NCBI GenBank assembly: GCA_031372565.1
Contig: JANMLN010000101.1
Location: forward strand, 1 to 28,529
DNA from: Gemmatimonadota bacterium
Lineage (GTDB): Bacteria; Gemmatimonadota; Gemmatimonadetes; Gemmatimonadales; Gemmatimonadaceae
DNA length: 28,529 bases
Reading direction: 5' to 3'
Shown: one piece after another, positions 20,007 through 28,389 of the stretch
How the letters are laid out: every line of letters begins with the position of its first letter
How positions within the stretch are numbered: the first letter of the stretch is position 1
The notes under the pieces: generated by a model
Database searches by the model: none
Seen by the model: the letters and a program-made list of their open reading frames with translations, nothing else
Told to the model about the DNA's origin: nothing
Program-made: the position numbers and the translations under genes

Positions 20007-21335
20007 ATGCTGACCTTCCTGGCGTTTGCGATGGTCGCGACCTTCATGGCGCTGATCATGACCAAGCGGTTGGCGCCCATCACCGCGCTCATCCTGATCC
20101 CGATCGTGTTCGGGGCGCTGGCCGGCTTCGCGCCCACGCTCGGACCGATGATGCTCGACGGGATCAAGGCGATCGCGCCCACCGGCGTGATGCTCATGTT
20201 CGCGATCCTGTACTTCGCGATCATGCTCGACGCGGGGCTCTTCGACCCGTTCGTGGCGCTCATCCTGCGCCTGGTGAAGGGCGACCCGGCGCGCGTCGTG
20301 CTCGGCACGGCGGTGTTGGCGCTGCTCGTCTCGCTCGACGGCGATGGCTCGACCACCTACATGATCACCACGGCGGCGATGTTGCCGCTCTACCTCAAGC
20401 TCGGCATCCGCCCGATCGTGCTGGCGTGCGTCACGATGCTCGCGGGGGGGATCATGAACCTGCTGCCGTGGGGCGGACCCACCGCGCGCGTCGCCACCGC
20501 GCTGGCGGTCGACATGAGCGTGCTCTTTCCGCCGCTCGTGCCCGTGATGGCGGCGGGCGCGGCGTGGGTGCTCTTTGCCGCGTGGCAGTTGGGGCGCGGC
20601 GAACGTGCACGGTTGCTTGCGCAGGGCGGACCCGCGCCCGCGATGCCCGACCCGCATGCGGAGCATGGGCTGGTCGGGGCAGATGCCGACGAGACATCGG
20701 AGCAGCTCAAGCGCCCCAAGCTGCGCGTCGTCAATGCGCTGCTCACCGTTGCACTGCTGGTGGCGCTCATCAAGGCCGTGCTGCCGCTGCCGGTACTGTT
20801 CATGATCGGCTTCGCAATCGCGCTCATGATCAACTACCCGTCACTCGCGGATCAGCGGGCGCGGGTCGGCGCGCATGCGGGCAATGCGCTGGCGGTGGCC
20901 GGGGTCGTGTTCGCGGCCGGGATCTTCACCGGGATCTTGTCCGGCACGAAGATGATCGACGCAATGGCGGAGAGCGTGGTGCACCTCGTGCCGGCGGCAT
21001 TGGGTCCGTTCATGGCGCCAGTGACCGCGGTGTTGTCCGTGCCGTTCACCTTCTTCATCAGCAACGACGCGTTCTACTACGGTGTGGTGCCGATTCTCGC
21101 GAAGGCGGCGGCGCAGTACGGCATCACGCCGGTCGAGATCGGACGCGCGAGTCTCATGGGGCAGCCGGTGCACCTGCTGAGCCCGTTGGTGCCGAGTACG
21201 TACCTGCTGGTGGGGCTCTGCGGCGTGGAGTTCGACGAGCACCAGCGGTTCACGATCAAGTGGGCGGCGCTGAGTGTCGTCGTGCTGTTCTCGGTTTCCG
21301 TGCTTTTCCTCGCGCTTCCCTTCGTGCGCGGTTGA
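20007..21335 (+). CDS. CitMHS family citrate:cation/proton symporter
   Basis: FAILYF..MLDAGLFDP, SLDGDGSTTYMIT, NLLPWGGPTAR, SNDAFYYGVVP and HLLSPLVPSTYLLVG; multiple TMs. Confidence 0.9.
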   Translation: MLTFLAFAMVATFMALIMTKRLAPITALILIPIVFGALAGFAPTLGPMMLDGIKAIAPTGVMLMFAILYFAIMLDAGLFDPFVALILRLVKGDPARVVLGTAVLALLVSLDGDGSTTYMITTAAMLPLYLKLGIRPIVLACVTMLAGGIMNLLPWGGPTARVATALAVDMSVLFPPLVPVMAAGAAWVLFAAWQLGRGERARLLAQGGPAPAMPDPHAEHGLVGADADETSEQLKRPKLRVVNALLTVALLVALIKAVLPLPVLFMIGFAIALMINYPSLADQRARVGAHAGNALAVAGVVFAAGIFTGILSGTKMIDAMAESVVHLVPAALGPFMAPVTAVLSVPFTFFISNDAFYYGVVPILAKAAAQYGITPVEIGRASLMGQPVHLLSPLVPSTYLLVGLCGVEFDEHQRFTIKWAALSVVVLFSVSVLFLALPFVRG

Positions 21336-21571: not shown

Positions 21572-23041
21572 ATGGCAATGACCGCATTCCGCTGGGTAGC
21601 GCTCAATTCGACTTCAGACTTGGGCGCGCTCGCTTCCATTCTGGGCGATGAGTACGGGCCCAAGAAGGTTGCGCAGCGTCTTGAGGCGGACCTTTCCGAC
21701 GCGGTAAAGGGACTCTTGGTTGAGCTGCACTACGTCGACAAGGACTATCGTAGCACTTACTATCACTTCTACGCTAAACAGGGTAGGCACTATCGCGACG
21801 ACTGCGTGCGCCTCCACTTCTTCGACGCGAGCGTTTCGTTCGAGGAAGCAGAGCTTCGCCTCAGTTGCCCCGACAGTCTGACCGATCATTATTTCGGGTA
21901 CATGGTTCTGCGACCAACGGGAATCGCCACCGTTGGCCGTAGCGTACTATCGCCGGATGTGCGGAAGGGAGCTTGCAGGTCAATAGTCGTTGCTGACCAC
22001 AAGGCCCACGTGCTAGGGCATCGCCTTCTGGTGAAGGGATTCCCGTCCATGGACCAGCATGTCGACATCGCCGTCTGCGCGCATGTTGCCTGCTGGTCGA
22101 TTCTTCGCCACTACAGCGAGCGCTACTCTATCTATCGAGAGCACTTGACGCATGATGTGACGATGATGGCACAGGACTTCAACCCCGGCGGGCTTGTTCC
22201 CTCACTCGGCCTCACTGTCGCGAACGCTGAGCGTGTGTTCCAGCAAGCGGGTACCTTCCCGCTTCTTGTCACTCGTAGGCCAAAGGATCCCGATCCGGAG
22301 TTCTTCAGGCAGATTGGAGCTTACCTCGAGTCGGGATTCCCACTCTTTGCCTCGATGCGTTCTCGCGAGCACGCGATCGCGATTGTTGGACACGAGTGGG
22401 TTCCTAAGCGCGATTGGCCGTCTGGCGGTTTGAAGTTCTCTTGGGACGAGGTGGCACGGCTCTGTGTAGTGGATGATAACTACCTACCGTATCACTCCAT
22501 GCCTGCCCTCGGTTCTGGAACGCCGTATTCCATTGACGACGTTGACGCTTTCATCGTTCCACTACCGGAGAAGGTCTTCTACTCCGCGGAAGCTGTCGAT
22601 CGCCTGTGCCCAGCGGTGCACAAGCATTTCCACAAGCTGCTTGGGTTACCGAGCGCTGACCAGTTGAATGTGCGTTACTTCGTGACGACTGCCTCATCCC
22701 TCCGCGAGTTCATCCGCGAGAGGGCTTCTGAGTTCGATCCGGCGCTCAGGAATGCCCTCATGACGCTACCGCTCACTCAGTTTGTATGGGTGGTTGAGTT
22801 CGCGACTGAGAGTCAGTGGGGTAGCCGACAGGTCTGCGCACGGGCAATTGCAGACGCGACAGCCAGCGTCAGAGATCCTCTGCCACTCTGGGCAATCCAT
22901 TCGCTAGACCGGGCGCTCGTTTTTGATCGGCGCAGTCGAATGGGAACTCCCGCAACAAACGCTTCCTTGATGCAGTACCCGACCACAGTCTCGGGATTTT
23001 CAAGAATGGAGCGAAACCTCCGTCCTACCCAGCCAAAATGA
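21572..23041 (+). CDS. Hypothetical protein with putative papain-like (C39-like) Cys-His-Asp core
   Basis: FPSMDQ..IAVCAHVACWSIL (Gln and Cys), YLESGFP, EHAIAIVGH (His) and VVDDNYLPY (Asp) appear in papain-fold order; alternative start at 21578. Confidence 0.65.
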   Translation: MAMTAFRWVALNSTSDLGALASILGDEYGPKKVAQRLEADLSDAVKGLLVELHYVDKDYRSTYYHFYAKQGRHYRDDCVRLHFFDASVSFEEAELRLSCPDSLTDHYFGYMVLRPTGIATVGRSVLSPDVRKGACRSIVVADHKAHVLGHRLLVKGFPSMDQHVDIAVCAHVACWSILRHYSERYSIYREHLTHDVTMMAQDFNPGGLVPSLGLTVANAERVFQQAGTFPLLVTRRPKDPDPEFFRQIGAYLESGFPLFASMRSREHAIAIVGHEWVPKRDWPSGGLKFSWDEVARLCVVDDNYLPYHSMPALGSGTPYSIDDVDAFIVPLPEKVFYSAEAVDRLCPAVHKHFHKLLGLPSADQLNVRYFVTTASSLREFIRERASEFDPALRNALMTLPLTQFVWVVEFATESQWGSRQVCARAIADATASVRDPLPLWAIHSLDRALVFDRRSRMGTPATNASLMQYPTTVSGFSRMERNLRPTQPK

Positions 23042-23265
23042 GTGACGAGACATCCGCACCTCCGACGCCGTCGAATGTTGTTTCGGGGCAGCCGGCCTCA
23101 GCTCTTAGGAGCTATGCTCAGCTAACTCCTGAAGAGCGTGCGCATTTTGACGCCTTCATCGATGAGATGTCGAGTTCGATAATTCCCGCGATCGTAAGCG
23201 ATGCTGAGGAACGTCAGCGCCTGGCGTTGAGAAGCCGTCAGGAGCCGCTCTCAAATCAACGGTAG
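23038..23265 (+). CDS. Small hypothetical protein (75 aa), coupled to the upstream gene
   Basis: ATGA overlap with the 21572..23041 stop; helical-looking C-terminal half. Confidence 0.55.
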   Translation: MSDETSAPPTPSNVVSGQPASALRSYAQLTPEERAHFDAFIDEMSSSIIPAIVSDAEERQRLALRSRQEPLSNQR

Positions 23266-23276
23266 GTGCGTTCGAG

Positions 23277-23636
23277 CTACTGTTGTGGCTTTCTCATTCT
23301 CTCGTAGGCTGTTCGCACTATCGCTTCGATGGCCTCGGCTGATTGCTCGTCGAGACTCGGATCTGATCGAAGCAGGCGAGAGATGGTACCGATGGCTGCG
23401 CCCGAATTCGAGTGACGTTCTTGCCTCACGAAATCGGACGGATTGAGATCGGCCCAGGCGGACAGCGCTGCGAGGCTTGCAGCATCTGGGAACTTTCCTT
23501 GCGCCATCCTTGTCAGTGTCGAAGCGCTAACTCCTGTTGCCTCAGATACTTGCTTCCAGGTTAGCCCTCTCGACTCGACTACTAGTCGAAGCGAAGCGAA
23601 GTAGCCCGCCCCGTCGAAACCCTTGTTCTTTGTCAT
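23277..23636 (-). CDS. XRE-family helix-turn-helix transcriptional regulator
   Basis: RGLTWKQVSEATGVSASTLTRMAQGKFPDAASLAALSAW; ATG at 23636; divergent from the Ubl operon. Confidence 0.88.
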   Translation of the reverse strand: MTKNKGFDGAGYFASLRLVVESRGLTWKQVSEATGVSASTLTRMAQGKFPDAASLAALSAWADLNPSDFVRQERHSNSGAAIGTISRLLRSDPSLDEQSAEAIEAIVRTAYERMRKPQQ

Positions 23637-23645
23637 GTCCGTTAG

Positions 23646-23713
23646 ATTGCTAATATGCAATGAACTTGCGAATAACAAATTGGCCGTTTATAATCCTATT
23701 TCAGAATAGCAAT
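23646..23713 (+). promoter_or_regulatory. Sigma-70 promoter of the Ubl operon flanked by two operator-like palindromes
   Basis: TTGCGA (23666-23671), N17, TATAAT (23689-23694); palindromes ATTGC-TAATAT-GCAAT (23646-23661) and ATTTC-AGAATA-GCAAT (23698-23713); RBS AAGGAG at 23730-23735. Confidence 0.72.
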
Positions 23714-24052: not shown

Positions 24053-24442
24053 ATGAAACTCGAGGTCTCGAAGGGGATCGATGAGTTGCGTCGACAGTTC
24101 CCTGCATCCACGCTCACGATACGTGAAGATGGACAAGGAGGGGCCTATGTGCTTCTCGAGCCGTTTGAGCTCGGGGCCCACTGTAGACCTAGTTCAACTT
24201 GGATAGGCTTTCATATTCCACCGCAGTATCCGTACTCTGACATCTACCCGGCTTTCATTGGGGCTGAAGTCACCTGCTCAAACGGACGGCCTCTCGCCGG
24301 TCCGGTTACACCAGGACACAGTTTTGAGGGCAGACCTGCGCTTCAGGTTTCTCGCCGCAACACTTCCGCCCCAAACGGGCACCAAACTGTTACCAGCAAG
24401 CTCCTAAAGATCTTGGCCTTTCTGTCAACTGCGGTACAATGA
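24053..24442 (+). CDS. Prokaryotic E2/UBC-like protein
   Basis: UBC-like FHIPPQYPYSDIYP motif; QVSRR at the expected active-site position; C-terminal helix; lies between the Ubl and E1 genes. Confidence 0.7.
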   Translation: MKLEVSKGIDELRRQFPASTLTIREDGQGGAYVLLEPFELGAHCRPSSTWIGFHIPPQYPYSDIYPAFIGAEVTCSNGRPLAGPVTPGHSFEGRPALQVSRRNTSAPNGHQTVTSKLLKILAFLSTAVQ

Positions 24443-25815
24443 ATACCTGTCGAGTACGAATCACACGTTCAGCCTTCGACGAGCTGAGTTCGCATCTTTT
24501 CCCAGGAGATGGCGACGAGCATGGCGCCGTCATGCTTGCCGGCGTGTCGACCTTCTCCTCAGATCAGACTGTGCTCACCGTTCGCGAAGTTCATCACGCA
24601 GCATTCGGCACTGACTACGTAGAGGGTACATACGGGTATCGCGCCCTCTCTCCGCGCTTCATCCACCGACTAATTACCCGTGCGCGCGACGAGCGGCTCG
24701 CCTACATCGCTGTTCACAACCACGCGACGAAGTCTTCGGTACGCTTCAGCCGAATCGACCTCGATTCCCACGAAAGGGGCTATCCCGCGCTACTACAGAT
24801 TGCACGCGGCATGCCGGTTGGCGCGATGGTGTTTGGAACTGATTCGGCCGAAATCGACCTGTGGATGCCCGACGGCACGCGCCACTCTCTCGACCGAGCC
24901 ACTATCGTTGGCGCGGGGATTCGCGACATAAGGCCGCAGCCACTTCCGGTAGCTACCGTAGTATCCGACGTCTTTGATCGGCAGGTACGGTTGTTGGGGA
25001 GCGAAGGCCAACGCCGCCTAGCAAAGTCCAAGGTTGCGATAGTGGGCCTTGGAGGAATCGGAAGTCTAGTCGCAGACTATCTGTCGCGTCTCGGCGTCGA
25101 GCGCTTTGTACTGATTGACCCTGATGCGGTCGAAGCTTCGAATCTCTCACGTATTGCGGGCTCAAAGCCCAGTGATGCGAAGCGCCGAACGTTGAAGGTC
25201 GACGTCACTACCAGGTTGATTCGATCAGTTCGAAGATCCGCAACCATCGCCGCATTTCCCGCCGACGTCGCGAACTCAACGGTGGCTCGAGAGCTCTGTG
25301 ATTGTGATTACATCTTCGTTGCTGCAGACTCGATGAGAGCACGTCTGGTCTGCAACGCGGTGGTGCAGCAGTATCTGATCCCGGGAGTGCAGCTCGGCTC
25401 GAAGATTCGGGCCACAACCGATGGGCAGCTGTTGGACATCCTCAGCGCCAATCGACCACTTCGGCCTGGTCACGGGTGCTTGTGGTGCAATCAGCTTATC
25501 GACCCAACAGAGCTCGCGCTTGAGGCAAAATCGGACCACGAGCGCCGAGAGCAGGCTTACGGTGTACGGGAACCGAATCCGAGTGTCATAAGCTTGAACG
25601 CGATTTCAGCTGCTCACGCGACGAACGACTTCTTGCTCGATTTTCTTTGTCTACGCGAAGAGCCGGAAGATGTCTATTTCGAGCATTTTCACCCTCTTTC
25701 GCACCGCTTCATGCGAGTGTTACCGCGCAGGGACCCAAACTGTTCTGAATGCGGGTCGACGGGCCTGCGATTCGCCCGTGGGGACGGCGTAGAACTTCCC
25801 TGTTCGGAAGGCTAG
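24439..25815 (+). CDS. JAB/MPN metallopeptidase fused to a ThiF/E1 adenylyltransferase
   Basis: JAB: DEHGAV and HNH-x8-S-x2-D. E1: DRQ, VGLGGIGS, DPDAVEASNLSR, ADSMRAR, Zn pairs CLWC and CSEC, and PSVISLN. ATGA overlap with the E2 gene. Confidence 0.9.
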   Translation: MNTCRVRITRSAFDELSSHLFPGDGDEHGAVMLAGVSTFSSDQTVLTVREVHHAAFGTDYVEGTYGYRALSPRFIHRLITRARDERLAYIAVHNHATKSSVRFSRIDLDSHERGYPALLQIARGMPVGAMVFGTDSAEIDLWMPDGTRHSLDRATIVGAGIRDIRPQPLPVATVVSDVFDRQVRLLGSEGQRRLAKSKVAIVGLGGIGSLVADYLSRLGVERFVLIDPDAVEASNLSRIAGSKPSDAKRRTLKVDVTTRLIRSVRRSATIAAFPADVANSTVARELCDCDYIFVAADSMRARLVCNAVVQQYLIPGVQLGSKIRATTDGQLLDILSANRPLRPGHGCLWCNQLIDPTELALEAKSDHERREQAYGVREPNPSVISLNAISAAHATNDFLLDFLCLREEPEDVYFEHFHPLSHRFMRVLPRRDPNCSECGSTGLRFARGDGVELPCSEG

Positions 25816-25841
25816 GCTCCGACTACTGCTACCACCAAGTC

Positions 25842-25970
25842 GTGCCGATCTTGGCGAAGGCGGCGGCGCAGTACGGCATCACGCCGGTCGAGATTGGGCG
25901 CGCGAGTCTCATGGGGCAGCCGGTGCACCTGCTGCGCCCGATGGTGCCGAGTACGTACCTGCTGGTGGGG
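25842..25970 (+). pseudogene. Duplicated fragment from the 3' region of the citMHS gene (direct repeat of 21087-21215)
   Basis: 129 bp with 7 mismatches by manual alignment; encodes VPILAKAAAQYGITPVEIGRASLMGQPVHLLRPMVPSTYLLVG; cut off by IS3. Confidence 0.92.
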
Positions 25971-26026: not shown

Positions 26027-26341
26027 ATGCCCCGCCGTCCCGCTGCCTATCCACCGGCCTATCGTGAGCAGATCATCGCCCTCGCCCGTGCCGGCAAGAG
26101 TGCCAAAGAGTTGTCGCAGGAGTTCGAGCCGTCTGAGCAGACGATTCGCAATTGGATCTTCCAAGCTGAGGCGGATCGAGGCGCGCGCCCTGGTGCGATG
26201 ACGAGCGATGAGCGGGCGGAACTCAGCCGCCTCCGACGCGAGAATCGGCAGCTCAAGGTGGAGCGCGACATCTTGGGAAAAGCCGCGGCCTGGTTTGCAC
26301 GGGAGTCGGGGACGATTCCGTCCGACTCTACAAGTTCGTGA
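26027..26341 (+). CDS. IS3-family transposase OrfA
   Basis: YPPAYREQII..., HTH TIRNW and zipper ELSRLRRENRQLKVERDILGKAAAWFA; RBS GAGGAG; slippery site G-GGA-AAA at 26275-26281. Confidence 0.9.
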   Translation: MPRRPAAYPPAYREQIIALARAGKSAKELSQEFEPSEQTIRNWIFQAEADRGARPGAMTSDERAELSRLRRENRQLKVERDILGKAAAWFARESGTIPSDSTSS

Positions 26342-26912
26342 GTGCAAATCAGGCCATCGCCCCGATTGCGACGATGTGCCGCGTGCTCGGGGTGTCGGAG
26401 AGTGGGTTTCATGCGTGGCGGGCCCGGACGCCGTCGCGGCGGGCGCAGCGGGACATCGACGTGCGCGTGGCGATTCGCGCGTCGCATGTGCGGTCGAATG
26501 GCACGTACGGCGCCCCACGCATCCTCGAAGATCTCCGCGAGGCCGGCTATCGCGTCGGCAAGAAGCGCGTCGCGCGCCTCATGCAGCTCGACGGACTGTG
26601 CGGCGTCTCCAAGCGTCGTGGGCCGGCACGGTCGCGGCGTACCATGCCCGAGGCACCCCTCGCGCCAGATCTGGTGGGACGGGTCTTCCACGCGACGGCA
26701 CCGAATCAGCTCTGGGTCGCCGATATCACCTACGTGCCGACGGCTGCGGGCTTCCTGTATCTCGCGGTCGTGCTCGATGTCTTCAGCCGCCGCATTATCG
26801 GGTGGGCGATGCGCAATACGCTGCACACGACCGTCGTCCTGGAAGCGCTCGACATGGCGGCCACGCAACGCCGTGCCACCGATGTCATTCATCACTCGGA
26901 TCAAGGCAGTCA
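26338..26912 (+). pseudogene. IS3-family transposase OrfB, truncated after the second catalytic Asp
   Basis: MCRVLGVS.SGF, TYGAPRI, KRVARLM, PNQLWVADITY, LYLAVVLDVFSRRIIGW and HHSDQGSQ, after which it reads into the IS30 end. Confidence 0.9.
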
Positions 26913-28389
26913 GCCCGGATTCAAACGGTCGTCGCAACAGCGGACGTGTTTGGTGATCGTAGCAGCTCGTTCAAGGCTTCGGCAGGGGTGCGCCAATTCA
27001 AAGACTTCCGCGGGCGCGAGTTCAGCGCGAGCGCGACCGCCGCGAGATCCGCTTCGGTATAGGCGCTCAGATCCGTTCCCTTCGGGAAGTACTGTCGCAG
27101 CAGTCCATTCGTGTTCTCGTTGGTGCCCCGTTGCCATGGACTGCGTGGATCGCAGAAGTAGATCGCCAGCCCTGAATCAATGCGGAGTTGGACGTGTTCT
27201 GCGAGCTCGGCACCTTGGTCCCACGTCAGCGACTTACGAAGCGCTGTCGGGAGCTGCTTCATGGCGCGAGCGATGGCCGTTCTGACCGCGGTGGCCCCAT
27301 GGCCAGCGAGCGGCGGGCCGTTTTTCGTGTCGGTGCTCCGGTGACCTTCGTGGTGATCAGCCATGCGTGGGAGATGCAGCAGCATGGTGAAGCGTGTCGT
27401 GCGCTCGACGAGCGTCCCGATTGCGGAGCTCTCAAGACCGAGAATGAGATCGCCCTCCCAGTGTCCTGGCACCGCCCGATCGGCCACGTCGGCAGGGCGC
27501 TCGCTGATCATGATCTCGGGCGTTGCAAAGTGTTTGCCGGTCCGACCGGTCCGCGCACGGGGTACGCGCAGCGCGCGCCCCGTGCGCAGACACGCGGTCA
27601 GTTCCCGGCGCAGCGCCCCGCGTCCCTGGATGTAGAGCGATTGATAGATAGCCTCGGCACTGATGCGCATCGTCAGGTCGTCGGGGAAATCCAACAGGAG
27701 ACGTCGAGCGATCTGCGTGGGACTCCACGCGCGCGCCCAGCGTCGATGCTGCCGTCGGCCTCGCTTTCGGCCAGTCCACGCCACGGTCGGTCCGGGCACA
27801 GGCTGGCCAGTCGGCGTCGCGATCACGCCGGCCAATCGGTCCTGTACATAGTGCCGCAGCGGCGCGTTCACAGCCAGCTTGGCGGGCTTCGGACGCAGGG
27901 CCGCGCGATCCGCGTGCCACTGCGCGGTGGTCGCCGTGTAGTCGAAGCTCCCGCTTCTCGTCGCGGCATTGCGTCGTAGTTCGCGGGAAATGGTCGAGGG
28001 GGCCCGTCCGAGCCGTCGGCCGCACTCACGGACACCATGCCCCGCGGCGCGCAGGAGCGCGAGCTGCTCACGCTCCGCAAACAAGAGATAGCGGCCGCTG
28101 AGCGGCGGCGCCGAGGCGGCGAACTGGGTCGGAGGCATACCACCAGCTTGCCGGAACCAACGCGTCCCCACCACCCACGACACGCGCGCCTCGGCCACGG
28201 CGGCCTCCGGATACAACCCGCGGCCGATCGCCTTCCAGAACTGTGCACGATCGGCGCGACGACCAACGGGAGGCCGTCCCGGTGAACGAAGCTTTCTTCG
28301 CGTGCTTTTCGCCGATTTTCGGCGTCCACATTGTGTCATCGAACAACTCCTCGTAGGTGAGGTGTTTCGACGACCGATGGAATCCACCC
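26913..28389 (-). mobile_element. IS30-family insertion sequence (about 1.48 kb; ends approximate to +/-3 bp)
   Basis: Imperfect terminal IRs GGATTCAAACGGTCGTCGCAACA and GGATTCCATCGGTCGTCGAAACA enclose a single transposase gene. Confidence 0.88.
26921..28339 (-). CDS. IS30-family transposase
   Basis: LGRAPSTISRELRRN, WSPTQI, ISAEAIYQSLY, PGHWEGDLI, TLVERTTR, SLTWDQGAE, SPWQRGTNENTNGLLRQYFPKG and LNSRPRK; start codon uncertain. Confidence 0.93.
   Translation of the reverse strand: MTQCGRRKSAKSTRRKLRSPGRPPVGRRADRAQFWKAIGRGLYPEAAVAEARVSWVVGTRWFRQAGGMPPTQFAASAPPLSGRYLLFAEREQLALLRAAGHGVRECGRRLGRAPSTISRELRRNAATRSGSFDYTATTAQWHADRAALRPKPAKLAVNAPLRHYVQDRLAGVIATPTGQPVPGPTVAWTGRKRGRRQHRRWARAWSPTQIARRLLLDFPDDLTMRISAEAIYQSLYIQGRGALRRELTACLRTGRALRVPRARTGRTGKHFATPEIMISERPADVADRAVPGHWEGDLILGLESSAIGTLVERTTRFTMLLHLPRMADHHEGHRSTDTKNGPPLAGHGATAVRTAIARAMKQLPTALRKSLTWDQGAELAEHVQLRIDSGLAIYFCDPRSPWQRGTNENTNGLLRQYFPKGTDLSAYTEADLAAVALALNSRPRKSLNWRTPAEALNELLRSPNTSAVATTV

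Follow-up and report, generated by a model that had tools for sequence, protein, structure and literature searches.

The window analysed here, a whole contig of 28.5 kb (28,529 nucleotides) from a Gemmatimonadota bacterium, contains a low-GC island of ~4.7 kb with six genes. The first two lie on the forward strand and encode a papain/C39-like cysteine protease of 489 aa (21572..23041), identified from its ORF, the alignment and an AlphaFold model, and a small partner of 75 aa (23038..23265) coupled to it through an ATGA overlap; both ORFs are as the initial annotation had described them. GC3 in the island is 0.54-0.69, compared with 0.91 in two flanking host genes. Convergent with the pair is the gene of a CapH-type XRE HTH repressor (23277..23636, minus strand), whose likely start is the ATG at 23636; the ORF tool gave a TTG at 23678. 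Divergent from the HTH gene, again on the forward strand, follow a Ubl of the multi-ubiquitin family (PF14452; 23742..24041), with the C-terminus DDNS and no terminal Gly, a BubB-like E2 protein (24053..24442) with a weak Prok-E2_E match and an invariant Ser100, and a BubCD-like JAB-E1 (ThiF) fusion (24439..25815). The DDNS ending is found in 76 of 80 profile matches to the Ubl, the others being one HHEDS and three truncated ORFs, and a further Ubl relative (L191) ends in DDNA. A 151-nt direct repeat on the forward strand marks the island boundary, its left copy (21065..21215) being the 3' part of a citMHS-family transporter gene and its right copy (25820..25970) 89% identical to the left. IS elements at 26027-27285 and 26921-28387 come after the right copy, and the island carries no integrase.

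The 489-aa protein can be confidently assigned, by its modelled fold, to the papain/C39-like (clan CA type) cysteine proteases. The AlphaFold model (pLDDT 95.7, pTM 0.94) comprises an N-terminal subdomain (residues ~1-135), a catalytic core (residues ~136-335) and a C-terminal alpha/beta domain (residues ~336-489). In this model C169 (codon 22076-22078) stands at the start of a helix, H267 (22370-22372) at the start of a strand, and D301/D302 (22472-22477) close the next core strand, with Q162 as the oxyanion candidate. Among 98 aligned homologues Q162 is conserved in 96, C169 in 97, H267 in 98, D301 in 93 and D302 in 98, and the family motifs around the catalytic residues are HAxAxxG and xDDN. 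The papain-like order of Gln..Cys, His and Asp that the initial annotation had read from the letters is thus borne out (93-98 of 98 homologues), and fold and conservation together point to a Cys-His-Asp triad. A structure search with the core found the C39 peptidase 6mpz (Z 11.5, rmsd 2.5, 134 residues aligned), ZUFSP (Z 10.8, rmsd 4.1, 196 aligned) and UfSP2 (Z 10.4, rmsd 4.0, 189 aligned), matches that are effectively tied; Foldseek returned the same families at E>0.001, so that the fold first proposed holds, with a best Z of 11.5. A Kyte-Doolittle scan detected no hydrophobic signal or TM stretch (best 19-residue mean 1.05, and 0.85 within the first 35 residues), as expected from the earlier reading of no signal peptide. 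The C-terminal domain, one of the flanking regions not recognised at that stage, folds alone (pLDDT 91.6) and has no clear fold match. Its best hits, HI1450 (Z 5.3) and Ugi-2 (Z 5.1), are at background level, for which reason a DNA-mimic identity was not adopted, and the same fold search of this domain found no sensor domain, GAF and ssDNA-binding domains included.

With C39/C39_2, ZUFSP, Mug105 and UfSP the protease shares the core fold (Z 10-11.5) and the Gln-Cys-His-Asp order, but the identity is 10-14%, and the protease has extra N- and C-terminal domains and a dedicated small partner. Unlike the PCAT-type C39 peptidases, as the main text of PMC7391069 describes them, it is accompanied by no ABC transporter and has no aromatic residue after the catalytic His, and the family lacks the Asp-Pro-His box of UfSP/ATG4 (box as given in the main text of PMC10318531). 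The residue after the catalytic His is Ala in 80 and Val in 17 of the 98 homologues; being small in 97 of 98, it indicates that the family is without the aromatic gatekeeper known from Gly-Gly DUBs and from PCAT C39s. ZUFSP resembles the modelled protease both in fold and in the absence of this gatekeeper, a likeness that need not imply Ubl cleavage.

Profile libraries gave little for this family. Pfam and NCBIfam had no match for the 489-aa protein, PADLOC gave only a chance-level one (E 0.04), and the three together held nothing informative for the 75-aa partner or the distant protease forms. PF13529 (C39_2) matched nine of 98 family members weakly, with a best E of 3.3e-5, and did not match the window protease. 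A 98-row protease profile found no PDB sequence at E<=1. Apart from one cluster with 11% PF13529, all that the ESM Atlas returned was hypothetical, and for the C-terminal tail of the long forms it gave nothing above 0.9. A viral fold library gave generic papain-like matches only, phage records contained no match to the protease or to the HTH, and viral contigs no relatives of JAB-E1 or E2. The family itself is large, with at least 1030 homologues at 90% clustering among 8000 scored candidates and, at 50% clustering, 3252 clusters at E<=0.001, of which 287 reach E<=1e-30. One member, P0132, has Ser in place of the catalytic Cys and Pro in place of the oxyanion Gln and is likely an inactive variant, judging from these substitutions. 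In locus L001 (8001-9463) the protease gene is split by a frameshift, with the rest of the cassette present. Forms of 700-750 aa (L092:7836-9941, L008, L009 and L146) have an extra C-terminal domain with the motif GHP(S/T)..ARI(A/G)GE..SGRYS, and four forms of 1015-1261 aa match NF041375 weakly, below its cut-off.

Among 86 close loci examined, a homologue of the partner follows the protease in all 79 that have at least 300 nt downstream, and the 75-aa ORF is therefore a real gene, not a chance one. The conserved pattern is M-x4-IPxI-x4-ExR-x3-AA-x2-R-x3-L, in which P50, R59, A63, R67 and L71 of the window protein are found. When the protease and the partner were folded together, as the initial annotation had suggested, binding was predicted with a score of 0.87 (0.86-0.88 between runs), compared with 0.00 for the best of three controls. 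Among solved pairs 116 of 157 come up to the mark for this score, and among mismatched ones 2 of 215, counts that serve as a rough guide here since our own alignments were used. The runs agree in at least 80% of contacts, with 125-127 confident contacts and a partner pLDDT of 73, and on this prediction the two proteins very probably form a complex. The middle of the partner is predicted to pack on the protease helix 338-356 and the C-terminal domain, while its residues 65-71 touch a protease surface that includes 170, 213-220, 266, 268 and 325-326. By papain anatomy, we take this surface to be the non-prime side of the substrate cleft; C169 and H267 themselves are absent from the confident contacts. 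This predicted geometry suggests that the partner may act as a plug with Leu71 in the S2 pocket, that is, as an inhibitor.

The end of the partner also admits a different role. The L71 column is Leu in 60 of 67 distinct close partners, with Lys next in 50; 45 of the 67 end exactly two residues past this column, and the others have tails of up to 26 residues. This is the pattern of a processed precursor, and the small protein could then be a substrate, cut after the conserved Leu-Lys either to release an active peptide, as in the Pepco/EACC1 pro-toxins, or to pass an acyl-peptide on to a target, for example CapH or a protein of a phage, as an E1-independent tag. The position of the tail within the cleft of the predicted complex would suit this, as would the small size of the residue that follows the catalytic His, which leaves room for a bulky P2 according to the main text of PMC7391069. 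However, the distant partners are unrelated in sequence (only one pair at E<0.01) and several end at the hydrophobic-plus-one position, with nothing left to cut; the partner has no membrane segment, and the large interface suits a stable inhibitor. We consider the substrate role improbable. A further step along this line, to which we would give slightly less credence still, is that the small protein serves as a peptide tag and the papain-like enzyme as its writer, which would cut after Leu-Lys and move the tag to CapH or, in stand-alone pairs, to phage or host proteins. If true, the pair would amount to a protein-tagging switch that works without an E1 and also controls an operon for ubiquitin-like conjugation.

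The HTH protein of the window is 40-48% identical to 22 plasmid HTHs. Besides L006, 9 of 21 plasmid HTH loci were opened, of which 8 have ImmA/IrrE directly downstream and 6 are divergent from multi-ubiquitin operons; because these relatives precede ImmA/IrrE, mostly beside Bub-type operons, the window HTH can be placed in the CapH type. Between the HTH gene and the Ubl lie two operator-like palindromes, an exact ATTGC-N6-GCAAT at 23646..23661 and a second with one mismatch at 23698..23713, and these are the window's only sites at up to one mismatch. At least one site occurs in 60 of 60 close intergenic regions and at least two in 52, against 0.2 of 60 in shuffles, with the motif derived from these same regions; independently, sites with up to one mismatch were found in L006, in L130 and in eight of the nine plasmid HTH loci that were opened. 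No operator precedes the protease gene in any of 69 loci, as would be expected of a constitutive sensor outside the regulon. The CapH-type gene is convergent with the protease pair and divergent from the Ubl operon, and no capP stands behind it. From the arrangement of genes and sites, the Ubl operon appears to be repressed, with its usual cis-encoded inducer gone. A Tyr in the C-terminal helix of the repressor is carried by 6 of 8 M78-linked HTHs and by 0 of 14 protease-linked ones, a difference too weak to use.

In the close clade, the pair and the operon travel together. Of the 64 loci that extend 2 kb or more downstream, 60 have Ubl, E2 and JAB-E1; the HTH occurs in all 73 with enough flank, and the six-gene order is fixed at 49-65% identity across Acidobacteriota, Pseudomonadota and metagenomes. 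The four Ubl-less loci are L022 and L090, which are the same contig, and L042 and L043, which are near-identical; the HTH is truncated or altered in them, and they look like two remnants seen twice, counted within the 60 of 64. In genome samples, protease matches were found in 5 of 301, 25 of 401 and 1 of 251 genomes, sample centres included. Of 36 distant regions, taken from 28 non-centre genomes and many of them on short contigs, only one (L130) has the HTH and the Ubl operon. The link to the Ubl cassette that was initially proposed therefore stands for the close clade (60/64) and fails for distant regions (1/36), and the neighbourhood survey, which shows Ubl/E2/JAB-E1 co-occurrence in the former, finds restriction-modification, Tn7-like and prophage sites for distant pairs.

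A reverse test was carried out from the operon. The window E2 matches nine plasmids, all of which were opened, and the genome samples added L130, L190 and L191. The protease pair is present in L006 and L130 and absent from eight plasmids, L190 and L191. For each of the ten DDNS-type Ubl-E2-JAB/E1 operons that lack the pair, the fetched region contains an M78 domain, be it in CapP beside the HTH, fused to an HTH or to HigA, or fused to a helicase. In the cassettes that carry the pair, M78 was found in 0 of 64 close loci and in neither L006 nor L130, calls of absence that are imperfect because the local M78 profile missed one true M78 (L191). A CapH that lacks its usual M78 anti-repressor exactly where the pair is present is the most informative neighbour of the protease. 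At L164:47-4794 and L190:7419-12125, what precedes the DDNS-type operon is an M78-UvrD-PD-(D/E)XK fusion together with a small ORF and a further gene upstream (of the sigma-70 family in L164); this arrangement is another regulator variant of DDNS-type operons.

Two arrangements of pair and operon exist. In that of the window the pair faces capH. In the other, found in L006 and L130, a pair of 26% identity is turned towards the end of JAB-E1. A single origin of both pairings was rejected: the two protease groups do not form one clade, Ubl-free homologues lie between them, and the AU test gave p=0.0004 (24 rows, a quick LG+G4 tree, and groups set by gene order after a FastTree had been seen). 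The E1 and HTH trees, FastTree with weak support, also separate the arrangements. Different protease clades and separate E1/HTH placement make the substitution of CapP look recurrent, and the pair's position at the far end of the operon in the second arrangement speaks against a simple displacement of capP by insertion. CapH, the DDNS operon and the protease pair without CapP thus seem, on these trees, to have been assembled twice.

The operon resembles the Type I Bub operon in its Ubl, Ser-type E2 and JAB-E1 fusion (PMC11601596, main text and supplement), but its Ubl and E2 are separate, with no BubAB fusion, the Ubl ends in DDNS, BubE (DUF6527) is missing and the regulator slot is occupied by the protease pair. 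According to the same text BubE is present in all Bub operons, and the protease might replace it as a deubiquitinase or maturase for the DDNS-ended Ubl. The ZUFSP and UfSP matches in the structure search, the Ubl linkage of the close clade and the existence of a second pairing would fit such a role. It is nevertheless quite unlikely: ten DDNS-type operons do without both the protease and BubE, the operon has its own JAB domain, the protease gene is neither co-transcribed with the operon nor provided with its operators, and most homologues have no Ubl nearby. The ten protease-free operons make a required DUB or ligase role for the Ubl pathway, as the initial annotation had entertained, improbable and, along with the operon's own JAB, weaken that proposal.

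Away from the Ubl operon, the protease and its partner are a mobile module. Distant pairs are found with type I RM (L135), after TniB/TniQ (L136), with a TrlF ATPase or a caspase and among housekeeping genes, and the pair of L092 sits in a P2-like prophage, with replication gene A on one side and the portal on the other. A blind filter for an adjacent, charged ORF of 50-90 aa was positive for 14 of 26 distant forms of up to 760 aa, compared with 3 of 79 control genes; among the nine protease forms above 760 aa it was positive for none. The pair is a coupled two-gene unit whose products are predicted to bind, as in type II toxin-antitoxin systems. It could accordingly be an autonomous protease-inhibitor module, toxin-antitoxin-like or for abortive infection, that is a fellow traveller of the Ubl operon; the protease would hit a host or phage protein, or release a fused effector, on loss of the plug, and CapH would be relieved otherwise. 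The defence-type sites of stand-alone pairs, the filter result and the extra C-terminal domain of some 700-750-aa forms favour this, and the predicted binding suits an antitoxin equally well. An autonomous module would leave unexplained why neither of the independent pairings has an M78 when all ten pair-free operons do, and why a six-gene order is fixed across phyla, and it has no defence match in PADLOC or NCBIfam. We regard it as the less probable account, though one with real standing. The independent two-gene toxin-inhibitor module raised at the outset is thus upheld in part, by the predicted binding and the mostly Ubl-free distant relatives.

The reading we prefer, with a probability of roughly 0.45, is that a plugged, latent cysteine protease stands in for CapP as anti-repressor. 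The CapH-type repressor, on its two palindromic operators, would silence the Bub-like Ubl-E2-JAB/E1 operon, while the cytoplasmic protease would be wrapped by the small partner and kept shut by the partner's C-terminal tail in the substrate cleft, with the hydrophobic L71 close to the S2 pocket. Stress or a phage would give the signal on which the plug is displaced or destroyed, and the freed protease would cut or otherwise inactivate the repressor and so turn the operon on. This proposal draws on computed results, namely the fold, the conserved catalytic residues, the predicted complex, the order of the genes, the operators and the mutual exclusion with M78 in DDNS-type operons; from these we infer that the partner inhibits, that L71 acts as P2 and that CapH is the substrate.

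Several observations count against the stand-in for CapP. The exclusion comprises only two independent events, and since most distant homologues have neither HTH nor Ubl operon (1/36 with both), the basic job of the family cannot be the cutting of CapH. The imperfect calls of M78 absence, the position of C169 and H267 outside the confident contacts and the fold search of the C-terminal domain, which gave no sensor domain, also weigh against it. In L173 (4001-5198, NZ_CP017104.1), the CapH gene of a Type I Bub operon has behind it not CapP but ORFs of 57 aa and 215 aa without Pfam match; CapP loss beside a toxin-antitoxin-like pair is therefore not unique to this protease. By eye, the 215-aa ORF presumably resembles an ADP-ribosyltransferase-like toxin, from its motif. 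In L009 (2223-9016, NZ_OX638702.1), a Type II Bub operon that has retained both CapP and CapH is immediately followed, on its downstream side, by a pair of small protein and long protease. The only M78 match of the host genome, a 393-aa HTH-M78 fusion on another contig (L189, G000:C21:43103-46510), might act in trans. The two events, L173, L009, this host fusion and the stand-alone majority all feed the autonomous module. Both accounts can hold if such a module was co-opted, by analogy with the relation of CapK/CapS to VapKSC (PMC13373217, main text).

The closest known arrangement is CapP+CapH, in which, as the accessible text of Lau et al. (10.1101/2022.04.27.489752; PMC13228613) describes, an XRE repressor is divergent from an immune-type operon with a protease gene alongside, and operators lie in the promoter shared by repressor and cargo operon; the window has such operators. 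By extension from CapP+CapH, IrrE/DdrO and ImmA/ImmR are similar, and the plasmid Bub loci regulated by CapH/M78 have the same HTH family and operator. The window protease differs from CapP in being a papain-fold Cys enzyme, not an M78 Zn peptidase (HEXXH). The M78 slot downstream of capH is taken by the small gene, with no M78 in the 64 close loci, L006 and L130, and the protease gene either converges on capH or stands at the operon's far end, and is not co-transcribed. A separate small partner takes the place of CapP's internal cysteine switch, and no GAF or ssDNA-binding domain was found in the C-terminal domain, whose best fold match was at background. The main text and supplement of PMC11601596 report CapH+CapP at 168 of 544 Bub operons. 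CapK+CapS and VapKSC (PMC13373217, main text) offer a precedent, being a third and unrelated two-gene regulator found at Bub operons and, in stand-alone form, as a toxin-antitoxin-like unit, but they use kinase chemistry with a STAS-wHTH repressor, and their proteins are unrelated to the protease pair. The Pepco/EACC1 protease-effector defence modules have trypsin-like or caspase-like partners, with 'papain' and 'C39' absent from the main text (PMC12642450); the small protein of the window has no profile match and is a predicted tight binder, and its enzyme has the papain fold.

The pair resembles CapP+CapH in position and C39/ZUFSP in fold, yet it lacks the specific marks of either, and the operon is Bub-like without BubE. 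Open-access main texts, together with the supplement of PMC11601596 ('C39' and 'papain' each 0 times), held no description of the protease family, which other supplements could list; protease and partner are real, conserved and, as far as searched, undescribed.

The three regulator types described for bacterial immune and Bub operons, CapW, CapH+CapP as well as CapK+CapS, all sense ssDNA. If the preferred reading is true, a plugged cysteine protease acting on CapH would be a fourth regulator type, with unrelated chemistry and probably a different signal. According to the main texts of PMC11601596 and PMC13373217, Bub-like operons are so far without a demonstrated phenotype, and the signal that triggers the protease would show when these operons are needed. 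Irrespective of what the protease acts on, its family is large, unnamed and equipped with a dedicated partner; it recurs in defence hotspots, and the pair is a compact two-gene test system. It may represent a new kind of on-switch for bacterial defence genes.
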